Source of the DNA: Terriglobia bacterium
Lineage (GTDB): Bacteria; Acidobacteriota; Terriglobia; Acidiferrales; UBA7541
Direction: 5' to 3'
Length of the DNA: 64,000 nt
Assembly: GCA_963799715.1 (NCBI GenBank)
Contig: CAWCYS010000003.1
Coordinates: 12,789 to 76,788 of the forward strand
Of this stretch, positions 5,372-51,373 are shown piece by piece. The notes under the pieces are model-generated. The model saw only the letters and a list, made by a program, of their open reading frames with translations, was not told where the DNA came from and searched no databases. The position numbers were made by a program, and so were the translations under genes. Position 1 is the stretch's first letter, and each line of letters opens with the position of its first letter.

Positions 5372-6355
5372 GCGGCGAATCGTCATTCGGATCGTTCTGG
5401 AAGCGAAGCGCGCTGGGGCGCTGGGGACTTGTGGTCACGGCGCTGCTGTTGCTGACCGCGCTGTTTGCGCCGTGGCTTGCGCCGCGCGATCCCGCCGCGC
5501 AGGATCTGCCGAATCGCCTGGCGTCGCCGAGCGCGGCGCACTGGTTCGGCACGGACGAATTGGGGCGCGACATTTTATCGCGAACGATTTACGGCGCGCG
5601 CGTTTCGATGCTGGTGGGCGTCTCTGTCGTGCTGGGCGCGGGACTCACGGGCCTTGGCGATCGGGTCGCTCGCGGGCTACATCGGCGGCGCGTTCGACAG
5701 TGTTGTGAACATCGTGCTGATCAATGCATTTTTATCGTTCCCGGGGATTTTGCTGGCGATTGCGCTGGCGGCGTTTCTCGGACCGGGCGTCGGCAAGGTG
5801 ATTCTCGCGCTGATTGTGACGGGCTGGGCGGGTTACGCACGGCTGGCGCGCGCGCAAGTGCTGAAGGTGAAAGAGATGGAATTCATCGCGGCGGCGCGAT
5901 CGCTGGGCGCAAGCGATACGCGCATTCTCCTGCGGCACTTGCTGCCGAACACGATTCAACCCGTGCTGATTCAGGCGACGATCGGAATGGCGGGCGCGAT
6001 TCTTGCGGAATCCACGCTGAGTTTTCTGGGATTGGGCGTGCTGGCGCCGACGCCGAGTTGGGGCGCGATGCTGAATGATGCGCGCAATCATTTGTTCGAC
6101 GCGCCGCACCTGGTGATTTTCCCGGCGCTGGCGATCATGGCCGCGGTGCTGGCGTTCAATCTGCTGGGCGATGCGCTGCGCGACTGGCTCGATCCGCGCA
6201 CGCGGTCGTTTCTGATCACGCAGGATTTGTGCAGCGGTGAGCGCGCTAGGCGGCGGGAAGTTCGAGGTGACTTCGGCGCCGCGCGCCACGCCAAGCGTGC
6301 GGGCGGCGTTGCCTTTGTTGATTGCGATTTCCAGAAATCCACTCGATCCGATTAG
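5368..6355 (+). CDS. ABC transporter permease, DppC/OppC-like, one frame break; 3' end uncertain
   Basis: ATG 5368. Fragment 5059..6078 gives MSGESSFGSFWKRSALGRWGLVVTALLLLTALFAPWLAPRDP..HWFGTDELGRDILSRTIYGARVS. Fragment 5465..6355 gives ..FLSFPGILLAIALAAFLGPG..FIAAARSLGASDTRILLRHLLPN..LGDALRDWLDPRTR. The frame changes near 5650. The in-frame stop is at 6355, but the last ~110 nt overlap the convergent gene, so the true end is probably around 6215-6240. Confidence 0.75.
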
Positions 6356-7046
6356 CGCGACCGGCTCGCCCGGCGCGCCCTGGCCGAACGTGAGAACAAA
6401 TCGCTCGATCGTTTTGGCGCCGGCCTGAAGTTTGATTTTTCCGGATTCGACCGCGGCGGGCGGCACATCTTCCGAGCGCAAATTCGTCATCAGGTTACCG
6501 AACGTATCCACCTTCAGCACCAGACCTTTCAACGCCGCTGCCATTCGGTTTGGGTTTCGGCACGCTGAAGCGCACAAAATTCGTGATCGATTCGCCGAAC
6601 GATTCCGTTTGCCATCCTTTCGAGAGCCAGCCCGCCACGGGCGCAAAAACGTCCCGGCCATGAAACGTCGGGCTGACGGGATCGAGGAAATTGTGAGACG
6701 CCGTGATGTGGCGCACCGGTCGCGCGGGGTCGCGCTCGTACACCATCGAAAGCACGCCGTTGTCCGGGGCGATGAAATAGTGCTGCGCGGCCGTGACGAG
6801 CAGCGGCCGGCGCTCCGTGCCCACGCCCGGATCGACGATCACGAGGTGAATCGTGCGCGGCGGAAAATATTGCCAGGCCGCGCCGATGGTGAGCGCGCCG
6901 TCCAGCACGTCGAACGGCGCTACGTGGTGCTGCAAATCCACAAGTCGTGCGGCGGGATTGATGTTGAGAATGACGCCTTTCATCGTGCCGACAAGATGGT
7001 CGGACGTACCGAAGTCAGTGGTCAGCGTGATGATGGGATCGGTCAC
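6246..7046 (-). CDS. SAM hydroxide adenosyltransferase / DUF62 (chlorinase-fluorinase-like) family protein, frame-interrupted
   Basis: ORF 6495..7046 gives MTDPIITLTTDFGTSDHLVGTMKGVILNINP..IVDPGVGTERRPLL..FHGRDVFAPVAGWL. Part of ORF 5732..6661 gives LKGLVLKVDTFGNLMTNL..GSSGFLEIAINKGNAARTLGV. The frame changes near 6540. A second 1-nt change near 6260 would give ..GAEVHLELPAA* ending at TAG 6246-6248. Confidence 0.75.
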
Positions 7047-7220
7047 GGGCGCCTTCCCCTTGAGTGCTTGTGCAGGCTGCGCGCGCGAAGGGGTTCGCTG
7101 CGAAAACGGCCACGTTTCACGCTAACGGACGCGATAGACAGTGTCAAGGCAACGTGCCCCAAGCGCTACGTGGGCGCGGCGTATCTTTTCGATTCCAGCC
7201 CCTTTTTAGTCGGCGGCGCA

Positions 7221-7772
7221 TCACCCGGACCATGCTTCGCGAATTCGGCGCACAAGCTCGCTGGTGCTCACTGGGCGTAATGTAACAATTCTGATGACTG
7301 TGCCGATGCCGATTGGGCCGTCGTACTCCGCGAGCAATTCGGGCGAGAGCGACTTCAGCGCGTGAGCAGGGTGGCGGCGCGTCGAGGCTGCGCGTTCGGC
7401 GAAACGACGGGCCATCTCTTCCGGCGGGCAACTGCAATAAGCCTCCACAATCTTGCCGCCAAGATTCTTGATTCGTTCTCGTTCGTGCACGTTGTGCGGA
7501 TGAAAATTCGCCTCCAGCACGACTTGTGGGCACTGCGCCGCCAACGCGAGCATCACCGCGATCGCCGCGTCGCTGAACTTGCGCGACTGCGCGAGATCGC
7601 CCGCGCAGCCATCGAGCGCGTCGAAGAGCGCCTCTTTGATGGGATCCTTCGAGAGCAGCGCAAATCCCAGCGCCGCGGCGAGCGGTTCGGCGACGCTCGT
7701 CTTCCCCGCGCCGGGCGCGCCGGTGACGAGGACAACTCTGCGCGCTGAGTCTGAATTCATGAGCGCACTCAT
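7221..7772 (-). CDS. P-loop NTPase / AAA_33-like small kinase family protein
   Basis: Intact 183-aa ORF with Walker A VVLVTGAPGAGKTSVAE near the N-terminus. Its size and layout resemble small nucleotide or antibiotic kinase-like ATPases. The substrate cannot be inferred. Confidence 0.6.
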   Translation of the reverse strand: MSALMNSDSARRVVLVTGAPGAGKTSVAEPLAAALGFALLSKDPIKEALFDALDGCAGDLAQSRKFSDAAIAVMLALAAQCPQVVLEANFHPHNVHERERIKNLGGKIVEAYCSCPPEEMARRFAERAASTRRHPAHALKSLSPELLAEYDGPIGIGTVIRIVTLRPVSTSELVRRIREAWSG

Positions 7773-7909
7773 GATAAGCCATCAGTCGGCGCGCAGCCTA
7801 CCCGTACCCAGGCAGAAAGCCGCGCGCATTGTCAGTTTGGCCGAAGCGCGCGAATCGCCAGGGTTATCGGGGATTTGCGTCGATAGCGCGTGAGAGCGTT
7901 TGCGCCTTG

Positions 7910-8821
7910 TTACTTGTTCTTACTTCGAGCCTCCGCCAATACGTCCATCATGGGCAGCGCGCCACCGCTTCCTTCAACCAACGTACTCGGAAGGTGTCCG
8001 TCCCATTTTTCTTTCATCATTTCGATCGTGCGGAGCTGGAGCAACTCCGGCGTGATCTGCTCTTTTTGCAGTTTGAGGGCATCCGCTTCTCCCTGCGCCT
8101 GGGCAACTTGCTGTTGAGCCTGGATCTGAATGCGAGTGAGGTCGTTCTTCGCCTTCTCTGCCAACTGCTCGGCCGTGACCTTCGCCTCGATGGCGTTCTC
8201 AAAATCCTGAGAGAAACTGAAATCCGTGATTGAGGTCGTCTCCGCAACGATGTGGTAGGGCGCGAGACGTGCCCTCACGAAAGTTTCGATGCCATCACTT
8301 ACGAGGGGGCGTTCACTCACCAACTGTTGGACGTCGTATTGAGCCGTGACCGATTTGATGGCTTCCAGAATGGCGGGAGTGATGACTCGAGTCTCTGCGT
8401 CGTCATTGAGAGTCACCAGAATGTCAGTCGCATACGCCGGGTCGATGTGATATGCGAGCGTGACTTCAGCATGGACGACCTGCAAGTCGTGGCTGGCGGC
8501 GTTCTCGGACGGCTTCACGATGGAGGTCTGCACGCTGACTGGCGTAACGGTGTCCGCGAAAGGCAGAACGAAGTGCGGTCCCGGAGTGAGTTGTCGGACG
8601 GGCCTCCCGAAGCGCAGCACAACTCCGATGGTCCCCGCCGTCACCGTGGTGAAGGACATGGCTATGAATCCGAAGAAGAGCGCGATGAGAAAGAATGGAA
8701 GACCGCGAAACGCATGTATCTTCAAGGTTCGGCCCTCGTGGGGCAGCCCGACCAATTCAAACGTACGCATCGCGCCAAAAATTAACGCTCCAAGAAACAG
8801 TAAGATGAAAAGAATTCCCAT
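7910..8821 (-). CDS. SPFH / band-7 (prohibitin-like) membrane protein
   Basis: Intact 303-aa ORF. It has an N-terminal TM region, then GTIGVVLRFGRPVRQLTPGPHFVLPFADTV..VQTSIV.., then a coiled-coil tail AEQLAEKAKNDLTRIQIQAQQQVAQAQGEADALKL. This is the typical prohibitin-homology domain architecture. Confidence 0.8.
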   Translation of the reverse strand: MGILFILLFLGALIFGAMRTFELVGLPHEGRTLKIHAFRGLPFFLIALFFGFIAMSFTTVTAGTIGVVLRFGRPVRQLTPGPHFVLPFADTVTPVSVQTSIVKPSENAASHDLQVVHAEVTLAYHIDPAYATDILVTLNDDAETRVITPAILEAIKSVTAQYDVQQLVSERPLVSDGIETFVRARLAPYHIVAETTSITDFSFSQDFENAIEAKVTAEQLAEKAKNDLTRIQIQAQQQVAQAQGEADALKLQKEQITPELLQLRTIEMMKEKWDGHLPSTLVEGSGGALPMMDVLAEARSKNK

Positions 8822-9013
8822 GTTGGCTTCTCCTATTCTGCAAATGCTCCTTAGGCCTGGCTATCGGGCGCGATTATATGGAATCGGTGAGTACGGCACC
8901 AGTAAAGCACATCTGCGCCGCCGTCCAACCTCCGTTCCTTGACCCTCCTGCTGGCTGCGGCTATTCTGAATCATTCGCGAGTGACCGGGCTTCCGCCCTT
9001 GATGAATGCATCC

Positions 9014-40492: not shown

Positions 40493-42148
<1,656 letters not shown>

Positions 42149-42184
42149 CGCGGGCTGCTGGCTAGAAAGTTCAGGGGAACTTCA

Positions 42185-43027
42185 ATGAAGAAATCCAGCC
42201 CCGGAAGGTTCGCACGCCGACCGAGCGCATTGCCCCTTGCCTTTGCGTTTGTCATGATTTTCGCTGCGATTCAGGGCTGTCACCAATCGGGAGGCGCCGG
42301 GTCGGATTCGGCAAACAAAGGGCCGAGCAAAGAAGAGATCCTTCCGAATGCGGATAAGTCCTACTATTACCTGCACAGCCGTGGCCTCCAGTCATTCCGG
42401 TGCACCGTCCAGCTAAGTACGAGCCAATCCGACGGCGATCAGTCGAAGCTCGCACAATTGGACAAGAGCCGGTATTCCGTCGTGGTGGACGATCAAGGGA
42501 CTGCCACAGTAACTCCTATCCTGGCCCGCGGAAAACCCGCGGATCACAGCGCGGATGATACTGTTTCGGCTGGGCAGCAATTGGTGGAGGCCTTTTTCCA
42601 GATGTGGGATTCGCTCGTATTCACAGGCATGTTTACCGGGTCAGACGATGAAAAAAAGATGATGCCTTGGGAGCAGCCGGATGGATTTCACTATTCCGGG
42701 TCATTTGGAGATGGGAGTAGGGAGTTCGTCCTGACGAAAGATTCTCTGCTCACGAAGATGGAACTGAAGAGCGAAGGCTCCACGATGGTGATGCAGCCCA
42801 AGTTCGCGAAAACGGATGGCGGCTTATGGTTGTTGACGGAGATGGATAGCGATAAGACCGTCGAAGGCGATATCACCGATGAAGAGGAGAAATTGAGCGT
42901 ACAGATCCAGTATCAGCCTCTCCAAGGCTTTCAATTGCCCGCCCATGTCGAGGACCAACTCGCTCTCTCAAACGGGGCGGTCACGATTGGCATGAATTTC
43001 ACCGATTACCACCTCACCAAGCAATGA
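42185..43027 (+). CDS. hypothetical lipoprotein
   Basis: Intact 280-aa [35 protein letters not shown] is a lipobox-type signal. The rest is acidic and beta-rich, with no recognised motif. Its GC content looks lower than the flanking pyrG and kdsA. Confidence 0.55.
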
Positions 43028-43110
43028 GTTGACGCGGTCGCAATCGACTGCCTCCGCCCGTCGCGCCGATTGCAAATCCCATCTATCCCGCATAGGCTAC
43101 AATTCCGAAT

Positions 43111-43952
43111 ATGTCCCCCACGCGCGAAATTCCGGTCGGCAAATTCTCGATTGGCGGTTCGCAGCCGCTCTTCGTGATCGCCGGACCGTGCGTCATCGAA
43201 AACGAGGCGCACACCCGCATGATCGCGCAGCGCCTCGCGGAGATCACCGCCGCCGCGGGCCTCCATTTCATTTTCAAAGCCTCCTACGACAAAGCCAATC
43301 GCACCTCGATTTCTTCCTATCGTGGGCCGGGAATGAAGGACGGCCTGGCGATTTTGCAGCGCATCAAGCAGTCGCTCGGCGTTCCGGTCCTCACGGACAT
43401 TCACGCTGTCGAACAAGCCGGCCCCGTCGCGGAGATTTGCGATGTGATTCAAATTCCCGCGTTCCTCTGCCGCCAGACCGACATGCTCGTCGCCGCGGGC
43501 AGGACGGGCGCGCGTCGTCAATCTCAAGAAGGGCCAGTTCGTCTCGCCGTGGGAAATGGCCAACGCGGTGGAAAAAATCGCGAGCACGGGCAACGAGAAA
43601 ATCGTGCTCACCGAGCGCGGCAGCTCCTTCGGCTACCAGAATCTCGTCGTGGACATGCGCTCCTTCAGCATCTTGCAGCCGCACGGGTTGTCCCGTGGTG
43701 TTCGACGTGACGCACGCATTGCAATTGCCCGGCGGGGAAGGGAAGTCGAGCGGCGGCCAGCCGGAATTCATCGAGCCGCTGGCGCGCGCAGGCGTCGCCG
43801 CTGGCGTGGACGGCATTTTCGTGGAAGTCCACGAAAATCCGCCGCAAGCGCTTTCCGACGGCACAAATGCGTTGCGTCTCGATCTTGCGCCCAGCCTGTT
43901 CGGCAAACTCGCGCAACTCGCCTCGCTCGTCCGCAAGTGGGAGGGCGCGTGA
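43111..43952 (+). CDS. kdsA: 2-dehydro-3-deoxyphosphooctonate (KDO-8-P) aldolase, two frame breaks
   Basis: Fragments are 43111..43710 (..[69 protein letters not shown]), the middle in 43556..44701 ([36 protein letters not shown]), and the end in 43029..43952 ([45 protein letters not shown]). Confidence 0.9.
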
Positions 43953-44911
43953 GCCTCGAAACCGCCAAGCGCGTTTTGCGCATCGAAGCCGCCGCGATCA
44001 CGGATCTTATCGAGCGTCTCGACGCGCGCTTTGAAAAAGCCATCGAACTCCTGCTCGTGTGTAAAGGCCGCGTCGTCGTGACGGGCATGGGCAAGTCCGG
44101 CCTAATCGGACGAAAAATCGCCGCCACGCTTTCGAGCACCGGAACGCCGTCGTTTTTCTTGCATCCCGCCGACGCGCTGCACGGCGATCTCGGTATGCTC
44201 ACGCGCAACGACGCGCTCCTCGCCATCAGCTACGGCGGCGAGACCGAGGAGATCGTCGCGCTCCTCGAGACGATCAAGCGCTTGGCCGTTCCCGATCGTC
44301 ACGCTCACCGGCAACGCGCGTTCCACACTCGCGGCCGCAAGCGAGGTCGTCCTCGATATTCGCGTGAAAGAAGAAGCGTGCTCGCTCAATCTCGCACCGA
44401 CGGCCTCCACCACCGCCACGCTCGCCGTTGGCGACGCGCTCGCCATCGCCCTGCTCGAACGCCGCGGCTTCAAGGAAGGCGATTTCGCCGCGCTGCATCC
44501 CAGCGGTCGCCTCGGCAGGAAGCTGCTGCGCGCCGAAAGCCTCATGCACTCCGGCGACGCCTTGCCGCGGGTGAATCTCGATACGAAACTGACCGACGTA
44601 ATCTACGAGATGAGCCGCAAAGGTCTCGGCATGACCACGGTCCTCGACGCACGAAGGCCGCCTCGCAGGAATCGTCACCGACGGCGATCTGCGCCGCCTG
44701 ATGCAGCAGCGCGGCTCCGAAGCCTTCCACGTCGCCGCCGGCGAGTACATGACGACGGCTCCCGTCACGTTGTCACCGCACGAACTAGCCGGCACCGCGC
44801 TAAATATTAATGGAGCGCCGCCGCATCACCTCCATCGTCGTCGTGGACAATGAGCAGCGTCCCCTCGGCGTCCTCCATCTCCACGATCTCTGGACCCTCG
44901 AACTCTTCTAG
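43949..44911 (+). CDS. kdsD: arabinose-5-phosphate isomerase (KdsD/KpsF; SIS + CBS), frame-interrupted
   Basis: GTG 43949 overlaps the kdsA stop (GTGA). Fragments are 43556..44701 ([64 protein letters not shown]) and 44364..44810 ([46 protein letters not shown]..). Own translation of the tail gives ..[40 protein letters not shown]. Confidence 0.88.
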
Positions 44912-44941
44912 CTTCTTCGCTTTTTGTTCCCATACTTAAAA

Positions 44942-44970
44942 TTGACGCTGGCGACAACCTTCGCTACCAT
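44942..44970 (+). promoter_or_regulatory. sigma70-type promoter TTGACG-N17-TACCAT, 13 nt before ATG 44984
   Basis: TTGACG at 44942-44947, a 17-nt spacer, and TACCAT at 44965-44970. The same hexamers and the same spacings recur upstream of the paralogue at 45767-45795. Confidence 0.55.
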
Positions 44971-44983
44971 CCCGCCCACGCCG

Positions 44984-45655
44984 ATGTCTCCTGCTCCGTC
45001 CATGTTCGTAGAAGGTGGCGCTAACGCCACTCCACAAGCGTCCATTCAGGATTCCTACGTTCAGCCCACTCTGAGCCATGCCTTCCGAATCTGGTGGGCC
45101 TACTACTGGCGAAACACCGTCGTCACCGTGATTCTCTTCGCCGGCGTCATATTGGTTGAGCGGCCGTGGTTCGAGAAGGGCTACATCCCAGACTGGTTTT
45201 ACCTTCCAACGGTGAGGTACGCGCCAATCCTGATTACGTATGCCGTGGCCATCCCCGTGTTTTATATGGTCTTGCGAAAGAAGTTTCGGAAGTTTCGCAT
45301 CGGGTTGGTTTCCTGTCAGAACGGTGTCCTAGGCGATCAAGTCCTTCCGGCCACTCTTGGACGCACACTGCGAATCTGGTGGGCGTTCTCCTGGCGAGCC
45401 TTCATGCTTGGCTTGATCGTTTCCTTTGTCGCCTTGCCTTTGAACATGCTGGTCGGAACACTGTCGGCTCTCCTTCCTCAGTTCGCGGTAGGATTCACCT
45501 TTCTGGCTCAATTGACCATCGACGCTGCAGTCGGCCTCTTCGTGATCTATAACAGTATCCTTGACGAGGGCTTCCCCGATTTTCAAGTTTGCCTACTGCC
45601 GAGGACGGCTCCGGCCCCAGCGCCGGCGGTCGAGACAACTCCAACCACAGTTTGA
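44984..45655 (+). CDS. hypothetical 4-TM membrane protein with duplicated RIWW..WR module (paralogue 1)
   Basis: ORF 44924..45655. Start placed at ATG 44984 because the promoter motif lies inside the longer ORF. There are two internal modules: FRIWWAYYWR..TM..TM..VFYMVLRKKFRKFRIGLV and LRIWWAFSWR..TM..TM..VIYNSILDEGFPDFQVCLL. I recognise no family. Confidence 0.6.
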   Translation: MSPAPSMFVEGGANATPQASIQDSYVQPTLSHAFRIWWAYYWRNTVVTVILFAGVILVERPWFEKGYIPDWFYLPTVRYAPILITYAVAIPVFYMVLRKKFRKFRIGLVSCQNGVLGDQVLPATLGRTLRIWWAFSWRAFMLGLIVSFVALPLNMLVGTLSALLPQFAVGFTFLAQLTIDAAVGLFVIYNSILDEGFPDFQVCLLPRTAPAPAPAVETTPTTV

Positions 45656-45766
45656 GTTGCAGATCGTCTTTGCCGTCCGTCCCGTTGCCCGCTATCGCAA
45701 TTCCGTCTTGTCCGCCATTTCCGAGTGGGGTGACTCGCTTCGAGATACCGCGTGTGGCAAGCCGCA

Positions 45767-45795
45767 TTGACGCGGGAATTTCCCTTCGCTAGCAT
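45767..45795 (+). promoter_or_regulatory. sigma70-type promoter TTGACG-N17-TAGCAT, 13 nt before ATG 45809
   Basis: TTGACG at 45767-45772, a 17-nt spacer, and TAGCAT at 45790-45795. The geometry is identical to the promoter at 44942-44970. Confidence 0.55.
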
Positions 45796-45808
45796 CGCGA
45801 CAATTCCC

Positions 45809-46471
45809 ATGAGCCAGATGTCATCGATGCTTGGAGACGGCACCGCGGCCGGGAACCGTGCGGCCGCCATCGAGTGCATATCAAAGACGTTCTGGCGCGC
45901 CCTTCGAATCTGGTGGGCTTTTTACTGGCGCAAAGCAATCCTTTTCGCGATCTTCGTCGCTGCGCTTCTCTTCGCGACAGACTCGCTCTATGCGCGAGGC
46001 GCCATTTCGTTCTGGCTGTACCGCTATCTGACGGAGTTCGGCCCGTACGTCATCAATTACGCCGCGGCACTCCCGGTGCTCCATTTCATTCTCAAAAAGA
46101 AATTTCGCAATTTCCGCCTCGCTTTGACGCCGCTTCTGGACGCGGACGCAGGCGCAGTGTTGCCTCCCACCGTCGCCCGCACGCTGCGAATTTGGTGGAC
46201 CTACACTTGGCGCACCTTCGCCTATTGCATCGGAATTTATTTCGTGGTCAACCTTCCCCTTGGACTCCTGGTAGGAACGCTAGGAACTATTTTCCCCAGG
46301 TTGAACGATGTATTCGCCTATTCGGCAGGTTTAGCAATCGAGGGTGTCGCTGGCTTCTTCGTGATCTATTCCAATATTCTAGAGGAGGAGTTCGGTAAGT
46401 TTCGCGTATGCCTGCTGCACAAAAAGTGCGGAGACTTGTCTCCCGCGGCCGCAGCGTCCCCAAGAATCTAA
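45809..46471 (+). CDS. hypothetical 4-TM membrane protein with duplicated RIWW..WR module (paralogue 2)
   Basis: ORF 45752..46471. Start placed at ATG 45809. The modules are LRIWWAFYWR..TM..TM..LHFILKKKFRNFRLALT and LRIWWTYTWR..TM..TM..VIYSNILEEEFGKFRVCLL. The architecture is collinear with 44984..45655. Confidence 0.6.
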   Translation: MSQMSSMLGDGTAAGNRAAAIECISKTFWRALRIWWAFYWRKAILFAIFVAALLFATDSLYARGAISFWLYRYLTEFGPYVINYAAALPVLHFILKKKFRNFRLALTPLLDADAGAVLPPTVARTLRIWWTYTWRTFAYCIGIYFVVNLPLGLLVGTLGTIFPRLNDVFAYSAGLAIEGVAGFFVIYSNILEEEFGKFRVCLLHKKCGDLSPAAAASPRI

Positions 46472-46559
46472 AATCGAGAATCGACCATTTGGTTTCGCTC
46501 TTTTCCACCCGCCGGTGATAGTCTCCTGCGCCGCCCGAATTCTCTTCCCGCGGGCAGCC

Positions 46560-49276
46560 TCATGGTTTCTTCACCGCCGCGACCCAGTTCGTCACCAGCG
46601 TGATCGGCTCTCCGCCCGATCCCGAGACGGGAACCACAATGACAAACTTTTTCCCGTCACTCGTTACGTCGTAGGGCAGCAGCAAGCTCGAGGAAGCGTT
46701 CACCGAGAACAACGTTTGCGTATTTCCGATTTCGAGGGAGCTGCCCTTCTCTTGAATCTCCACGGTCATCAGCTTGTTGTCCTCGCTGATATAGAACAGT
46801 TCTTTCCCATCCGCGCGCCAACGCGGTGCCGCTCCGCCGTTAGCCGAGACCTGCCACTTGCTGTTCGCCCCTGGGAACGACGAGATAAATATCTCGCGCC
46901 TCCCGGACTCTTGCGAAGAATACGCAATCCACTTGCCGTCCGGAGAAAAAGTTGGAGTCAGCAGATTGTAGGCATTTTGGATGAAGGGGAACGGTTTCTT
47001 GTCTCCAAAGAGCGGCAAAATCCAAATGCCGAATCCGCCCCCTGCTTGTGGATCCAGACGATCGTAGACAATATACCGCCCGTCTCTGGACCAGTCGCTC
47101 ACAAGTTGTTCTACACCGTCCCCGGCCAGCGGCTGAATGTCGCCGGTTCCGTTCGCCGCCTTTTCATACATGCTCAGATTTCCTGCGTGCGTCGATGAAA
47201 AGGCGATCTCTGTCCCATCGGGCGACCACGCGGGGTAGCCGTGCGATGCCGGGTCGAACGTAAAGCGCGTGCGCACCCCGCGCGTCAAATCCACCAGCCA
47301 GAGATCACTGTTTGACGTTTGCGGATCCTCGATTGCCTCGATCAGTGTCTTGCCATCCGGCGAGAGCCGCGCGTCTAGGACCCCTCCGGGTTCGCCCAAA
47401 GTGCCCAACTGCTTTCCGCCCACGTCCATCCAAACCACTTGACCCGCATCCGTCTCCGACCCTTCATAAACTAGCTCACCATGTTGCGAGACGGAAAAAT
47501 GACCGAGCCGGTACCTCTGCGGGTTTCCGATATGTTCGGCGATTGGAACGGCATCGCCGGTAAGCTTCAGGCCATCCGCGTCAAAGGGTTGGGCCATCAA
47601 AGTCTCACCCCGTAGGAAGAGCACGTATCCGGAAGAGGAATAAAGCGCATCACTGTCGGACGAGAAGAGAAATTGCCGTTGTTTGCCGTCCAGCGACGCC
47701 AGAAAAATTCCATTGTTTCCCGCAGTGCCTACAGCGAAGGGATTGCCCGACCAGTATAGAAAATGATTGTCGTCAGGCAGAAAGGATGGCCAACGAAGCG
47801 TAAGTTGTTGGTCAGCTTTATCGTCCGCAAAAATCGCTACGGGTTCTCCCCCGGCGGCTGAGACCCTCTCCAGGGATCCGGACACCTTTGGAGCAAAGAG
47901 GATTACGCCACTCTTACTCCATGTGCCCCCGCGTCCACTGGAAGCGTCGCAAACCGTCTGCGCCGGCCCTCCGGAAATATCAATCTTCATCAGTTTGCCG
48001 GACGCAAAAAAGCCTACAAATTGACTGTCCGGCGACCAGAAGGGAAACGAAGCGCCTTCTGTGCCTTCGAGCCGGCGGCTTGTCAATGAATCGAGTTCCC
48101 GCACCCAAAGCATCTCATTGGCGCCGCCGCTTTTCGCGCTGAACACCAGCCTCTTGCCGTCCGGTGAAAGGACCGGCGCTCCGAATGCAGCTTGGAAGAC
48201 AAAAGTGGCTTGTTCGGGCGGAAGAATATACGAACGAACCGATCGCTCCGGAACTGAAACCACGCGCCAGAAAAGAGTCGCGAGAATTGCCGACGTGATC
48301 AGAAAAATCGCCACGACGCCCCAGGGCAGCAGTCGCCGCCACGCGGGCTGACGCACTTTCTCAGCGCCAGCCGCGGTTGCCGCCGGAGCAATGAAATCAA
48401 TCCCGCTCACCTGGGCGGTCGGATTCAGTGTCTGCTCGATCGCGATGCGCGCTTCGCCGATCGCCTGCAATCGCTGCTTCGGATCCTTCAGCAAACTGCG
48501 TCGCACCAGCTTCTGAATAGTGGCGGGCGTATCCGCGGGCAGGGAACTCCAGTCCGGATCCACCTTCAGCACTTCAGCCAGCGTGTCCGAGACCGTCTCG
48601 CCGCTGAACGGCTGTTTCCCGCTCAACATTTCGTAAAGCACGCAGCCGAACGACCAAATGTCCGAGCGGCGGTCGGCAGCGCGTCCTTTCGCTTGCTCCG
48701 GCGACATATACGCTGCCGTGCCAAGAATCATTCCTTCGCGCGTGGCGGCGACGCTCAGCGTCGGCGAATTCGCGAGGTTCACTCCCGAGTTCTCGGTTTC
48801 GAGCGCCTTCGCCAGGCCGAAATCGAGCACCTTCACCGCGCCGTCCGGACGTCACCTTCACGTTCGCTGGCTTTAAATCGCGATGGACGATGCCGCGTTC
48901 GTGCGCGAATTCCAGCGCCTCGCAAATCTGTTTGGCAATGCCCAACGCCTCGTTCACAGGGGATCGCGCCCGTGGCCGTGCGGTCCGCAAGCGTCGGCCC
49001 TTCGACGAGCTCCATGACGAACGCGTGAACTTTTCCGGAATCCTCGAATCCGTAAATCGCGGCGATATTCGGATGATTGAGCGAAGCCAGCAGTTGCGCT
49101 TCGCGATGGAAGCGCGCCATGCGCGTGGCGTCCGCCGCAAACGCCTCCGGCAAAACTTTCAGCGCCACCTCGCGCCCCAGTTTCGAGTCGCGCGCGCGAT
49201 ACACTTCCCCCATCCCGCCCGCGCCCAGCGGCGAAACAATTTCGTACGGCCCGAATTTTGTACCCGGCGTTAACAT
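46560..49276 (-). CDS. Ser/Thr protein kinase with TM helix and C-terminal TolB-like beta-propeller; kinase domain frame-interrupted
   Basis: Fragments are 48833..49276 (MLTPGTKFGPYEIVSPLGAGGMGEVYRARDSKLGREVALKVL..), 48574..49140 (..ICEALEFAHERGIVHRDLKPANVKV) and 46560..48836 (VLDFGLAKA..GTAAYMSPEQ..). A TM helix (LLPWGVVAIFLITSAILATLFW) follows. Then come repeats LSPDGKRLVFSA, WSPDSQFVGF, LSPDGKTLIE, WSPDGTEIAFSS, WSRDGRYIVYD, FSPDGKWIAYSS and WRADGKELFYIS. Two frame changes are near 48840 and 48960. Confidence 0.88.
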
Positions 49277-49294
49277 TGGGATCCTTCGCTTCGC

Positions 49295-49423
49295 TCAGGA
49301 TTTCGTCTGCGGGCTCCCGCTTCGCTCACGCCCGCAAAGCGGCTCAACCTCGCCCATCCCGCCCGCACCTAACGGCGAGACGATCTCATACGGCCCAAAT
49401 TTGGTACCGGGCGCCAGACTCAT
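49295..49423 (-). pseudogene. orphan 5' fragment of a paralogous Ser/Thr kinase gene (first ~26 codons only)
   Basis: Own translation from ATG 49423 gives MSLAPGTKFGPYEIVSPLGAGGMGEV. It then diverges (EPLCGRERSGSPQTKS*). Residues 5-26 are identical in amino acids to the start of the kinase at 49276, but about a fifth of the nucleotides differ, mostly at synonymous positions. Confidence 0.7.
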
Positions 49424-49669
49424 CTATGCTCCTCAAGGCAACACACCCAATCGTTGCCCGTGAAATATATCCCAGATGCGGGGCCCCGCAAACAATCCGG
49501 CAACAAAGCGCCTTCGCGCAGGCAAGGATTAGTGGGAGAGGCACTCTCGCGCCCGCCGTGGTCCGCTGCGGTGAACGAAGGCGGTTGCCCGTCCTCCTCC
49601 GCCGCCCCACTTTGGCCTCGCCAGCTGCCGTGATAGCCTTGCAGGAGGCAATTCTCAAAGGAGATTTCC

Positions 49670-50233
49670 TTGGCGAAATCGAAATCCGCTAAAGTTTCCC
49701 CAGCGGTCCGCGCCCGCGCGAAGAAAATCCGCGTCCTGCTCACCGACGTGGACGGCGTGCTGACCGACGGCGGAGTTTGGCTGCTCTCCGAGAGCGACGG
49801 CGGCACGAAAGAAATCAAATGTTTCGACGCGCATGACGGCGTGGGCATGATGCTGTTGAGAATGGCGGGCATTCGCACGGGAATCATCACGGGGAGAGCG
49901 TCGGCCGCTGTGACCCGCCGCGCCGCGGAAGGCGGCGTGGAGTTCGTCTATCAGGGCGTTCCCTACAAGATTCCTGTGTACGAAGAAATTCTCCGGAAGA
50001 CGGGCGCGAAGGAATCGGAGGTCGCCTACGTCGGCGACGACCTGCCCGATATCCCGCTCATGAAGCGCGTTGGCCTGGCCGTCGCCGTGGACAACGCCGA
50101 ACCCGAAGTGAAGCGCGCTGCGCACTACGTCACTGCGCGCTCTGGTGGCAAGGGCGCGGTCCGAGAGGTGGTGGAACTCCTGCTGAAATCGCAGGGCCGC
50201 TGGGAGGAAATGATCGAGAAGGCCCGCGCCTAG
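49670..50233 (+). CDS. kdsC: KDO-8-phosphate phosphatase (HAD-IIIA)
   Basis: Intact ORF. AAGGAG lies about 8 nt before TTG 49670. Motifs are RVLLTDVDGVLTDGGVWL..FDAHDGVGMMLLRMAGIRTGIITGRAS..YQG..VAYVGDDLPDIPLMKRVGLAVAVDNA..VTARSGGKGAVREVVELLLKSQG. Confidence 0.88.
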   Translation: MAKSKSAKVSPAVRARAKKIRVLLTDVDGVLTDGGVWLLSESDGGTKEIKCFDAHDGVGMMLLRMAGIRTGIITGRASAAVTRRAAEGGVEFVYQGVPYKIPVYEEILRKTGAKESEVAYVGDDLPDIPLMKRVGLAVAVDNAEPEVKRAAHYVTARSGGKGAVREVVELLLKSQGRWEEMIEKARA

Positions 50234-50372: not shown

Positions 50373-51373
50373 TCAGAGGCTACCATTGCTCGCATTCGTT
50401 CGCAATGGGCCGCAGTTGCCGCTACTGTTCGCGGCGGACTTCGTCGAGGCCGGAACCAGCAGCGTCAGCGCGTTGGGCACGACGTAGAAGCGCAAGCGGC
50501 AGCGCGCCGACTGGCTCGCCGTCCACGTGCGCGTAGAGTGCGCCGCCCGGCAATGACGTGCACGTCACTTCCGTGGTCTTCCACGCGCTGATTCCGCGGA
50601 CGCTGCGCAGCTTGCCGAAATAAAGCGCGGGAAGCGCGAAGAGATAGCGCAACCGGCTGCGCGTCGAAAAGGTGACGATCTCGAACGAATCTTCGTAGAG
50701 GCTCGCGCCGGTCGTGATCTTGAACGGGCCCCCGTATTCGGCAGCGCGTCCCACGACGACGAGCGACGCTTCGACCGTGCGTTCGCGCGACTCGACGCGC
50801 ATGAGCGGAAAATTGTACGTGAAAAGTTGTTTGAATCCTTCCGACCCAATACGCCAGTTGCCCCGCCTGCTTCTTGAAATGTGAATCCACACCGTTGACG
50901 ATGGCGCCGTCCGGCCCGCTGCCGCCGACGCACAGAAAATAGCGCGGCGCGACCGGCGGGCCCCCGGTCTCCTCTGCGTCGCGAGCGGCGATGCAGCCGA
51001 GCGCGATCCGCCGCGGCGTGCTCGTGGGAATCAGATCGCGCGGCAGCGGGAATGTCCCACGGGATGCCGAGTTCTTTGGCCAGGATGTTGGCCGTGCCCG
51101 CGGGAAGCAGCGCCATCGGCACCTCGCTGCCGGCGAGGCCGTTGATGATTTCGTTGACGGTGCCGTCGCCTCCGCAGGCGATGACGAGATCGAGTTTGCT
51201 GCGCGACGGCCTGTTTCGCGAAGAGAGTCGCCGAGCCGGCTTCCGTCGTCGGGCGCAAACTCAACATTAATTCCGGCGTCGGCAAGAATCTTCCCAGCGG
51301 CATCAATCTCGGCAAGCCGGCGCGAGCGTCGCCGGCCGCTGATGGGGTTGTATATAAGGATGGCTTTGCGAAT
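50373..51373 (-). CDS. diacylglycerol/lipid kinase family protein (DAGK_cat, YegS/BmrU-like); frame-interrupted, no canonical start
   Basis: Fragments are 51031..51315, 50565..51122, 50465..50890 and 50422..50892. Own translation gives ..RKAILIYNPISGRRRSRRLAEIDAAGKILADAGINVEF.., ..KLDLVIACGGDGTVNEIINGLAGSEVPMALLPAGTANILAKELGIPWD.., and ..HVDGEPVGALPL.FYVVPNALTLLVP... The frame opens after TAA 51380-51382, and its first plausible initiator is ATT 51371-51373. Confidence 0.75.

Follow-up and report, generated by a model that had tools for sequence, protein, structure and literature searches.

What are the two adjacent genes that stand between kdsD and kdsC in a 64,000-nucleotide stretch of Terriglobia DNA (contig CAWCYS010000003.1; the whole stretch is hereafter the window), and what might their products do? 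A preliminary description of the window had singled out these genes, here called g1 (44984..45655, forward strand, 223 aa) and g2 (45809..46471, forward strand, 220 aa), as tandem paralogues that encode proteins with four transmembrane (TM) helices and fit no recognised family. As judged from the alignments reported below, g1 and g2 are paralogues, each an internal duplication of a module of ~95 aa.

Each protein contains two copies of a two-helix module

Both open reading frames (ORFs) are present, and BLASTP aligns their products over 221 aa with 39% identity (E = 2 × 10−54), as expected of a tandem paralogous pair. The proposal that each protein is an internally duplicated 2-TM module marked by an RIWW..WR motif is likewise borne out: the N-terminal half of g1 aligns with its C-terminal half at 25% identity (E = 4 × 10−7), and the family profile of N-terminal halves matches that of C-terminal halves over 88 columns (hhalign, probability 98.6%, E = 8.3 × 10−16). 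The motif had also been reported to be visible four times in the DNA, and we found exactly four copies of the codon-level motif CGAATYTGGTGGR in the window, where none is expected (100 shuffles). All are on the forward strand, three of them as CGAATCTGGTGGG (g1 module 1, 45086..45098; g1 module 2, 45371..45383; g2 module 1, 45905..45917) and one as CGAATTTGGTGGA (g2 module 2, 46187..46199). A search of the 64-kb window with the family hidden Markov model detected no further copy beyond g1 and g2, and Rfam identified 0 structured RNAs at window positions 42000-50000.

The module opens with a pre-strand, either YxQPT or LxPT, followed by a helix rich in Trp and Arg (LRIWWAxxWR), a pair of TM helices and, as its tail, a strand of the form (K/R)xFxxFRIxL. 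All four modules of g1 and g2 fit the definition of the family, in which the helix starts with [LF]-R-[IV]-W-W-x-x-x-W-[RP], the strand reads [KR]-x-[FY]-x-x-F-x-[IV]-x-L and two TM helices lie between them. On the forward strand, module 1 of g1 (45050..45319, residues ~23-112) runs from the pre-strand YVQPT through the interfacial helix LSHAFRIWWAYYWR into TM1, and then through TM2 to the basic tail and strand LRKKFRKFRIGLV; module 2 (45326..45604, residues ~115-207) runs from the pre-strand VLGDQVLPAT through the helix LGRTLRIWWAFSWR into TM3, and then through TM4 to the acidic tail and strand ILDEGFPDFQVCLLP. The modules of g2, also on the forward strand, consist of FWRALRIWWAFYWR, TM1, TM2 and the basic tail LKKKFRNFRLALT (module 1, 45869..46138, residues ~21-110) and of VARTLRIWWTYTWR, TM3, TM4 and the acidic tail ILEEEFGKFRVCLL (module 2, 46145..46423, residues ~113-205). 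The basic and acidic tail peptides quoted in the preliminary description were all found in g1 and g2.

AlphaFold2 (AF2) monomer models, built on a 46-sequence alignment, were confident and concordant for the two proteins. The model of g1 (predicted local distance difference test, pLDDT, 87.9; predicted template-modelling score, pTM, 0.76) contains helices at residues 30-64, 70-98, 125-149/151-163 and 165-192 and strands at residues 104-112, 115-121 and 200-206; that of g2 (pLDDT 85.9, pTM 0.77) contains helices at residues 28-62, 68-96, 122-161 and 163-190 and strands at residues 102-108 and 198-204. For g1, these elements, together with the hhalign repeat alignment, delimit module 1 (the first two helices and strand 104-112) and module 2 (strands 115-121 and 200-206 and the helices between them). 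The Trp/Arg-rich helix is continuous with the first TM helix of each module, and in the models the two modules of a chain form a four-helix bundle. The beta elements of the g1 model are the two post-module strands (104-112 and 200-206) and the pre-strand of module 2 (115-121), the pre-strand of module 1 being reduced to a single bridge residue. Hydropathy agrees with the AF2 helices on four TM helices per protein, as had been claimed: it resolves four hydrophobic segments in g1 and three above threshold in g2, the TM2 of which is taken from the model. The helical hydrophobic moment is highest in the basic tail and in the segments directly ahead of the RIWW motifs. We consider this structural description, a 4-TM protein built from repeats, highly probable.

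Across the family, the central linker contains on average 8.2 Lys and Arg vs. 1.7 Asp and Glu residues (net charge about +6.6), whereas the loops on the opposite side are short (~9 and ~6 residues). Given this charge, the positive-inside rule predicts an N-in/C-in topology, in which the linker and both termini, along with the Trp/Arg helices and strands, would face the cytoplasm. The linker, which carries the tail that follows TM2 and the second Trp/Arg motif, is also the most conserved region (0.68), whereas the loops are the least conserved (0.33-0.40). The 14 invariant residues (W37, W38, A39, W42, K99, F101, F104, L108, W132, W137, R138, Y189, L193 and E195) all sit at helix starts or tails, and in the wider family only W38, W42, F104, W137 and R138 remain more than 90% conserved. 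In the family alignments, no conserved polar or charged residue was identified inside the TM segments.

The module occurs in one, two or four copies

When 1.84 billion cluster representatives were searched exhaustively with HMMER, 901 relatives were identified at E ≤ 10−3, 201 at E ≤ 10−10 and 58 at E ≤ 10−30. A word-indexed search returned 46 proteins with g1 as the query, an underestimate in which g2 itself was missed, and 187 proteins at E ≤ 10−10 with g2 as the query; none of the proteins from the indexed searches had a precomputed Pfam domain. The NCBI names seen for homologues were all ‘hypothetical protein’, and the few JGI names were automatic labels of the transporter type. We recovered 80 loci from GTDB species genomes, and this mapping placed homologues almost exclusively in Acidobacteriota: nearly all loci are in metagenome-assembled genomes (MAGs) labelled Ca. 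Acidiferrales, Acidiferrum, Acidoferrum or Terriglobia (in the NCBI taxonomy, Ca. Acidiferrales is an order of Terriglobia), and a few are in MAGs of Verrucomicrobiia, Methylomirabilota, Limnocylindrales and Cybelea. Distantly related genes with a single module were found in Acidobacteriaceae, Desulfocapsaceae and Alkalimonas, and a Colwellia protein likewise has one module. The Alkalimonas gene, from the cultured A. cellulosilytica (contig NZ_JAUHLI010000001.1, 172361-184669), is located at L092 5983-6312.

Among the 145 representatives listed, 71 contain two modules, 70 contain one (many of these are fragments on short contigs) and one, P0125 (444 aa), contains four. Complete single-module ORFs of ~95-125 aa are present in long contigs (Alkalimonas, Colwellia, Acidobacteriaceae), and in a few proteins another domain precedes the two modules, namely GYF_2 (P0142, P0145) or RDD (P0165). 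Because complete single-module ORFs, forms with one, two or four modules and fusions all exist, comparison across the family identifies the module as an evolutionary unit in its own right. Of 60 complete two-module representatives, 29 have the basic/acidic order of tails seen in g1 and g2, 13 are basic/basic and 11 are acidic-or-neutral/basic; given these differences, the two-module state probably arose, or was rearranged, more than once. Single-module relatives (L088, L092, P0172, P0177, P0189, P0190 and others) have glycine-zipper runs of the GxxxGxxxG type in TM1, which are largely lost from the two-module proteins of Acidiferrales; the latter, including g1 and g2, contain at most one GxxxG.

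Origin of the g1/g2 pair

In a neighbour-joining (NJ) tree, g1-type proteins (six sequences) and g2-type proteins (eight sequences) are each monophyletic with 100% bootstrap support, and a third group of single-copy genes (P0006-P0008 and others) joins them in a clade supported at 82%. Within this clade, g1 and g2 are not sisters (4% NJ bootstrap support), so that a tandem duplication in situ is not a demonstrated origin of the pair. Such an origin is nonetheless plausible given that the upstream regions of g1 and g2 can be aligned. The g1 and g2 subtrees branch in similar order, and the trees suggest that the two genes were inherited together, with loss of g1 in the lineage of P0201; the g2 orthologues (P0199-P0204) are 59-76% identical to g2. 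Comparison of the window with a relative of 72% identity that has the same g1/g2 pair (L014) yields ratios of nonsynonymous to synonymous substitution rates (dN/dS) of 0.32 for g1 and 0.20 for g2, which indicate that both paralogues are under purifying selection. The order of events proposed earlier, an intragenic duplication followed by a gene duplication, fits the presence of free-standing single-module proteins in genomes and is supported.

L014, a Terriglobia MAG (MFD05377.bin.2.35), also presents an extended form of g2. At 6769..8946, the g2 orthologue has no stop codon and continues in frame into a ~500-aa Sel1-repeat protein, which begins with a segment resembling a signal peptide (MVQDNSLRQGLIILAVLVSCAHSACAQ). 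The Sel1 gene is inserted between g2 and the kinase, an insertion that is missing from the window, and the read-through is either a real fusion or the result of a lost stop codon or an insertion or deletion in a long-read MAG.

Promoter-like elements and translation starts

Promoter-like elements on the forward strand precede both genes, at 44942..44970 for g1 (TTGACG, 17-nt spacer, TACCAT) and at 45767..45795 for g2 (TTGACG, 17-nt spacer, TAGCAT), and each element ends 13 nt before the ATG. Elements of this kind (TTGACT-N17-CAGAAT/CACAAT) were identified in 65 of 76 upstream regions of homologues, compared to about 1% of controls (shuffled or random segments of the same loci). Of the 65 elements, 52 have TTGACT as the −35 box, 54 a 17-nt spacer and 41 CAGAAT or CACAAT as the −10 box, and in 47 the −10 box ends 13-14 nt from the ATG. 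Judged by these matches to the consensus, both genes appear to be transcribed from separate sigma-70-type promoters, with leaders of only a few nucleotides. With promoters of their own and a leader too short for a Shine-Dalgarno site, g1 and g2 would be independent of kdsD.

Most Acidiferrales homologues (in L016-L087, for example at L020 ~5940-6000) also retain an N-terminal peptide, M-P-x-P-P-S-M-F-(D/E), including both ATG codons (M1 and M7). The motif (consensus MxxxxSMF) is predicted to be disordered (pLDDT about 50) and is degenerate in g2 (MSQMSSML). Its conservation could reflect either a short linear motif or the demands of starting translation on a nearly leaderless mRNA. The choice of start codon differs between gene callers, P0001 having been called from M7.

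A possible membrane-surface platform

With slightly more belief than doubt, we favour as the best overall explanation an undescribed inner-membrane family of ~95-residue 2-TM hairpin modules that act as a membrane-surface platform. Under this explanation, the strands would join both modules into a small sheet on the cytoplasmic face (an arrangement drawn from the monomer model), and the module would be a dimerising unit that associates via its tail and pre-strands. Single-module proteins would then be homodimers and two-module proteins pseudo-dimers, and g1 together with g2, or the four-module P0125, would form higher assemblies. The working part would be the cytoplasmic interfacial collar of aromatic and basic residues together with the sheet, and the platform would most likely bind anionic lipid head groups or a cytoplasmic partner. 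The proteins would accordingly be structural or regulatory membrane proteins rather than enzymes or classical solute transporters, and each gene would be expressed from its own conserved sigma-70-type promoter. The functional class taken by itself, a structural or regulatory platform at the membrane surface, is a doubtful assignment.

Several observations weigh against the platform. The libraries searched contain no homologue of known function, and we identified no conserved partner gene in the neighbourhoods collected (74 species genomes and 8 metagenomic proteins). It could also be that the conserved residues serve only to define the fold and carry no information on binding. AF2 yields a monomer model, and the pseudo-symmetry, strand pairing and oligomeric state of the modules are postulated; the promoter and the short leader are consensus matches, as distinct from mapped transcription starts; and the GxxxG runs in TM1 of single-module relatives, which are typical of oligomeric channel formers, favour a channel.

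An oligomeric pore or channel is the best-surviving of the alternatives, although we consider it improbable. In such a channel, 2-TM hairpins would assemble as dimers or higher oligomers, the Trp-rich helix would serve as a slide or gating helix, and g1 and g2 would form a heteromer. Kim et al. (2005, PNAS) reportedly found the glycine-zipper motif in question to be enriched among channel formers that assemble as homo-oligomers. Consistent with a channel, the one-, two- and four-module forms suggest oligomeric assembly, and weak sub-threshold matches recur, to the TM regions of MgtE in 6 of 71 members (best E = 0.0024) and also to the glycine-zipper 2TM family. However, all of these database matches are below threshold, the external loops (~6-9 aa) are too short for a selectivity loop, no TM segment contains a conserved polar or charged residue, and it is precisely the two-module Acidiferrales proteins, including g1 and g2, that have at most one GxxxG.

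Less probable than the channel is that the modules are a mere membrane anchor or oligomerisation device, which tethers partners or the short N-terminal tail (M-P-x-P-P-S-M-F in most homologues). This could account for the fusions to GYF_2 and RDD and for an N-terminal motif that is conserved but disordered. The fusions are rare, however, amounting to a handful of the representatives inspected, whereas stand-alone forms dominate and have strongly conserved interfacial motifs that a mere anchor would not need, and the N-terminal motif is degenerate in g2. An anchoring role also overlaps with that of a platform and does not exclude it.

Returning to the platform, its most extended form is one that we offer as possible, somewhat short of probable. 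The RIWW module would found an undescribed family and fold of membrane proteins, a self-dimerising 2-TM hairpin whose Trp/Arg helix and strand are zipped into a cytoplasmic aromatic/basic platform. It would have been duplicated independently into pseudo-dimers, with tail charges in the order basic/acidic or acidic/basic depending on the lineage, and split here into a co-inherited g1/g2 hetero-oligomer, a lineage-wide membrane-surface factor (binding a lipid or a partner) in the uncultured order Acidiferrales.

Gene neighbourhoods differ between clades

In the lineage of the window, represented by L005-L008 (DNA 98-99.6% identical to the window), the gene order is pyrG, a 280-aa lipoprotein-like ORF, kdsA, kdsD, g1, g2, a convergent kinase with Pkinase and PD40/Tricorn domains, kdsC and a YegS-like lipid kinase. 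The placement of the pair between genes for 3-deoxy-D-manno-octulosonate (KDO) synthesis, kdsD and kdsC, and beside a membrane Ser/Thr kinase, is therefore correct: kdsA, kdsD and kdsC score above the NCBIfam cut-offs (tested on the intact, nearly identical copy in L005), and the Pkinase and PD40/Tricorn kinase lies between g2 and kdsC. L094 and L096/L097 have a kdsD-X-kinase arrangement with a single g2-type gene as X. Elsewhere, the gene is single within ±6 kb and is found in other contexts. The commonest is rpsA-HU-HIT-X-acyl-CoA dehydrogenase, which occurs in 25-30 of the 74 genomes, contains no KDO genes and is a lineage synteny of housekeeping genes; others are TPR or WD40-X-PAP2-CDH and NHL-X-aminotransferase. 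No neighbour is constant across clades in the 74 genomes and 8 metagenomic proteins. As no neighbour is common to all clades, the link to KDO is specific to one clade, and we rejected it as a property of the family.

These neighbourhoods also bear on an accessory factor of the envelope or of lipopolysaccharide (LPS) tied to KDO or lipid metabolism, for example in the handling of lipid-linked intermediates or as a regulatory subunit. We consider it the least probable of the three alternatives: the arrangement kdsA-kdsD-[g1]-g2-kinase...kdsC is kept in several species of the clade, a PAP2 phosphatase, a CDP-diacylglycerol pyrophosphatase or an acyl-CoA dehydrogenase stands beside the gene in other clades, and the best PDB sequence match is the start of Wzm TM1 (E = 0.06) and the top fold match dolichyl-phosphate mannose synthase (TM-score 0.37, E = 6.4), but neither match is significant, the commonest context has no KDO genes, the gene is preceded by a promoter of its own and lacks a constant neighbour, and the ‘lipid theme’ was selected post hoc among neighbours that vary, several of which lie on the opposite strand. 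A neighbour in another clade, a putative ArnT-like glycosyltransferase as read from its ORF, would also fit an envelope role.

Three further observations concern the surrounding genes. First, the 280-aa ORF between pyrG and kdsA (window 42185..43027) has a lipoprotein-like N-terminus (…AAIQGC…) and matches no Pfam or NCBIfam family; it is kept in L005-L008 and L096/L097 and is absent from L094. Second, three consecutive membrane Ser/Thr kinases of ~900 aa with PD40/Tricorn beta-propellers lie downstream of the g2-type gene in L096/L097 (7650..14618), and the window has one such kinase (46560..49276), which is split by two insertions. Third, homologues of the third group (P0007, P0006; L001 13034..15122, L098 11122..13232) are located a few kb from a bacterial-microcompartment shell cluster of three EutN/CcmL genes, one BMC gene and a class II aldolase.

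Frame damage and base composition of the window

The preliminary description had emphasised that g1 and g2 remain intact in a window where many genes are frame-damaged. Both genes are indeed intact, but the contrast carries no biological weight. Compared to three independent contigs (L005, L007 and L008, 98-99.6% identical to the window), the window has seven insertions of 1 nt, in kdsA (43510, 43676), kdsD (44294, 44653, 44809) and the kinase (48845, 48957). None is in a homopolymer, and all are absent from the three contigs, in which kdsA, kdsD and the kinase are intact. Mismatches cluster at the same genes (21.7 per kb in kdsD) and in the lipid-kinase gene (77 per kb), and the affected positions of the window further include 50420-50496, whereas g1, g2 and the spacers show 0-1 mismatch. 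The damage is private to the source of the window and is most simply a sequence or assembly error, concentrated in stretches of high guanine-plus-cytosine (GC) content, and we therefore rejected the idea that selection kept g1 and g2 intact among pseudogenes.

The GC content of g1 and g2 (0.53-0.58) had been noted as lower than that of their neighbours. This is true relative to kdsA and kdsD (0.61-0.675) but not relative to the adjacent kinase, the 3′ half of which is equally low. Both genes have a strong skew of T over A, as hydrophobic codons give. Horizontal transfer was rejected as an explanation of the lower GC content, since the drop is modest and shared with part of the kinase, a T-rich skew is typical of sequences coding for TM segments, and the genes are (nearly) identical in the three contigs.

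Comparison with known families

A confident match to a Pfam or TIGRFAM family would contradict the view that g1 and g2 belong to no described family, and none was identified. In Pfam-A (24,736 models, 2025 copy, judged by the family gathering threshold), g1 had 0 matches at E ≤ 10 and g2 only Ubiquitin_4 (E = 3). In scans at E ≤ 1, no family recurred above threshold in a diverse set of 71 members, and 10 further relatives, either divergent or fused, matched only via their fused GYF_2 and RDD domains. The YiaAB two-helix repeat family (PF05360) was absent both from the E ≤ 10 matches of g1 and g2 and from the best 25 of the 65 families matched by the 71 members at E ≤ 1. In NCBIfam (18,950 models including TIGRFAMs, June 2026, judged by the curated cut-off), g1 had no match, the best match of g2 was conj_TraX (E = 0.98, 9 bits vs. 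a cut-off of 100), and 13 single-module relatives matched nothing below E = 0.003. In PHROGs, g1 and g2 had no match and a single-module relative gave the best value (E = 0.038); PADLOC defence systems gave no match. A sequence-profile search of the PDB reached at best E = 0.06 (Wzm, 34 residues; not significant), and Foldseek reached at best E = 2.5 (g1 model) and E = 3.0 (g2 model) against the PDB, with all TM-scores ≤0.37, and E = 0.26 (TM-score 0.33) against BFVD. Full-text literature searches returned nothing for GYF_2/RDD/transmembrane and only MAG announcements for Acidiferrales.

The proteins form an undescribed family of small membrane proteins without a fold match, new only in the narrow sense of the libraries searched, and a remote relationship is possible. 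If truly undescribed, the family would add a compact, confidently modelled membrane fold, and its series of one, two and four modules would be material for studying how pseudo-symmetric membrane proteins evolve by duplication. It merits consideration as a new Pfam/InterPro entry, and a conserved gene with its own promoter is a target in Acidiferrales (GTDB UBA7541), an abundant uncultured lineage of soil and peat.

Four known systems invite comparison. By TM-score, the top fold match of the g2 model is the TM domain of Pyrococcus dolichyl-phosphate mannose synthase (PDB 5mm1, 5mlz), which in the published structure reportedly consists of four helices plus interfacial amphipathic helices. The match is not significant (TM-score 0.32-0.37, E 4-6, top E = 6.4, probability 0.14-0.20), and g1 and g2 have neither the GT-A catalytic domain nor sequence similarity to the enzyme. 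The O-antigen ABC-2 permease Wzm of Aquifex aeolicus (PDB 6oih, 6m96) has LGIWWAFLWP at the cytoplasmic start of TM1, compared to LRIWWAFYW(R/P) here, but the match (E = 0.06-0.16) covers 34 residues only, and the remainder of the 6-TM permease is unaligned. An ABC-2 permease of the Wzm/TagG/KpsM type was rejected, as g1 and g2 have no ABC2_membrane match in Pfam, have four TM helices instead of ~6, and have no ABC ATPase among their neighbours. We treat both Wzm and dolichyl-phosphate mannose synthase as non-significant leads and not as relationships.

The glycine zipper 2TM domain (PF05433, Rick_17kDa_Anti) is, like the single-module relatives, a 2-TM hairpin with GxxxG runs. However, the match is sub-threshold (E = 0.033, against a cut-off of 24.2 bits) and was obtained with one member only, that family has no RIWW and FRI motifs, and g1 and g2 have no full zipper. 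The RDD family (PF06271) and similar small multi-TM modules are also bacterial membrane modules that occur alone or behind a cytoplasmic GYF_2 domain (PF14237), with a poorly defined function. In sequence, the RIWW module does not resemble RDD, which matches only the N-terminal part of P0165; it differs further in being strictly a 2-TM hairpin, marked by the motifs W-W-x-x-x-W-R and F-x-x-F-R-I and used in 1, 2 or 4 copies.

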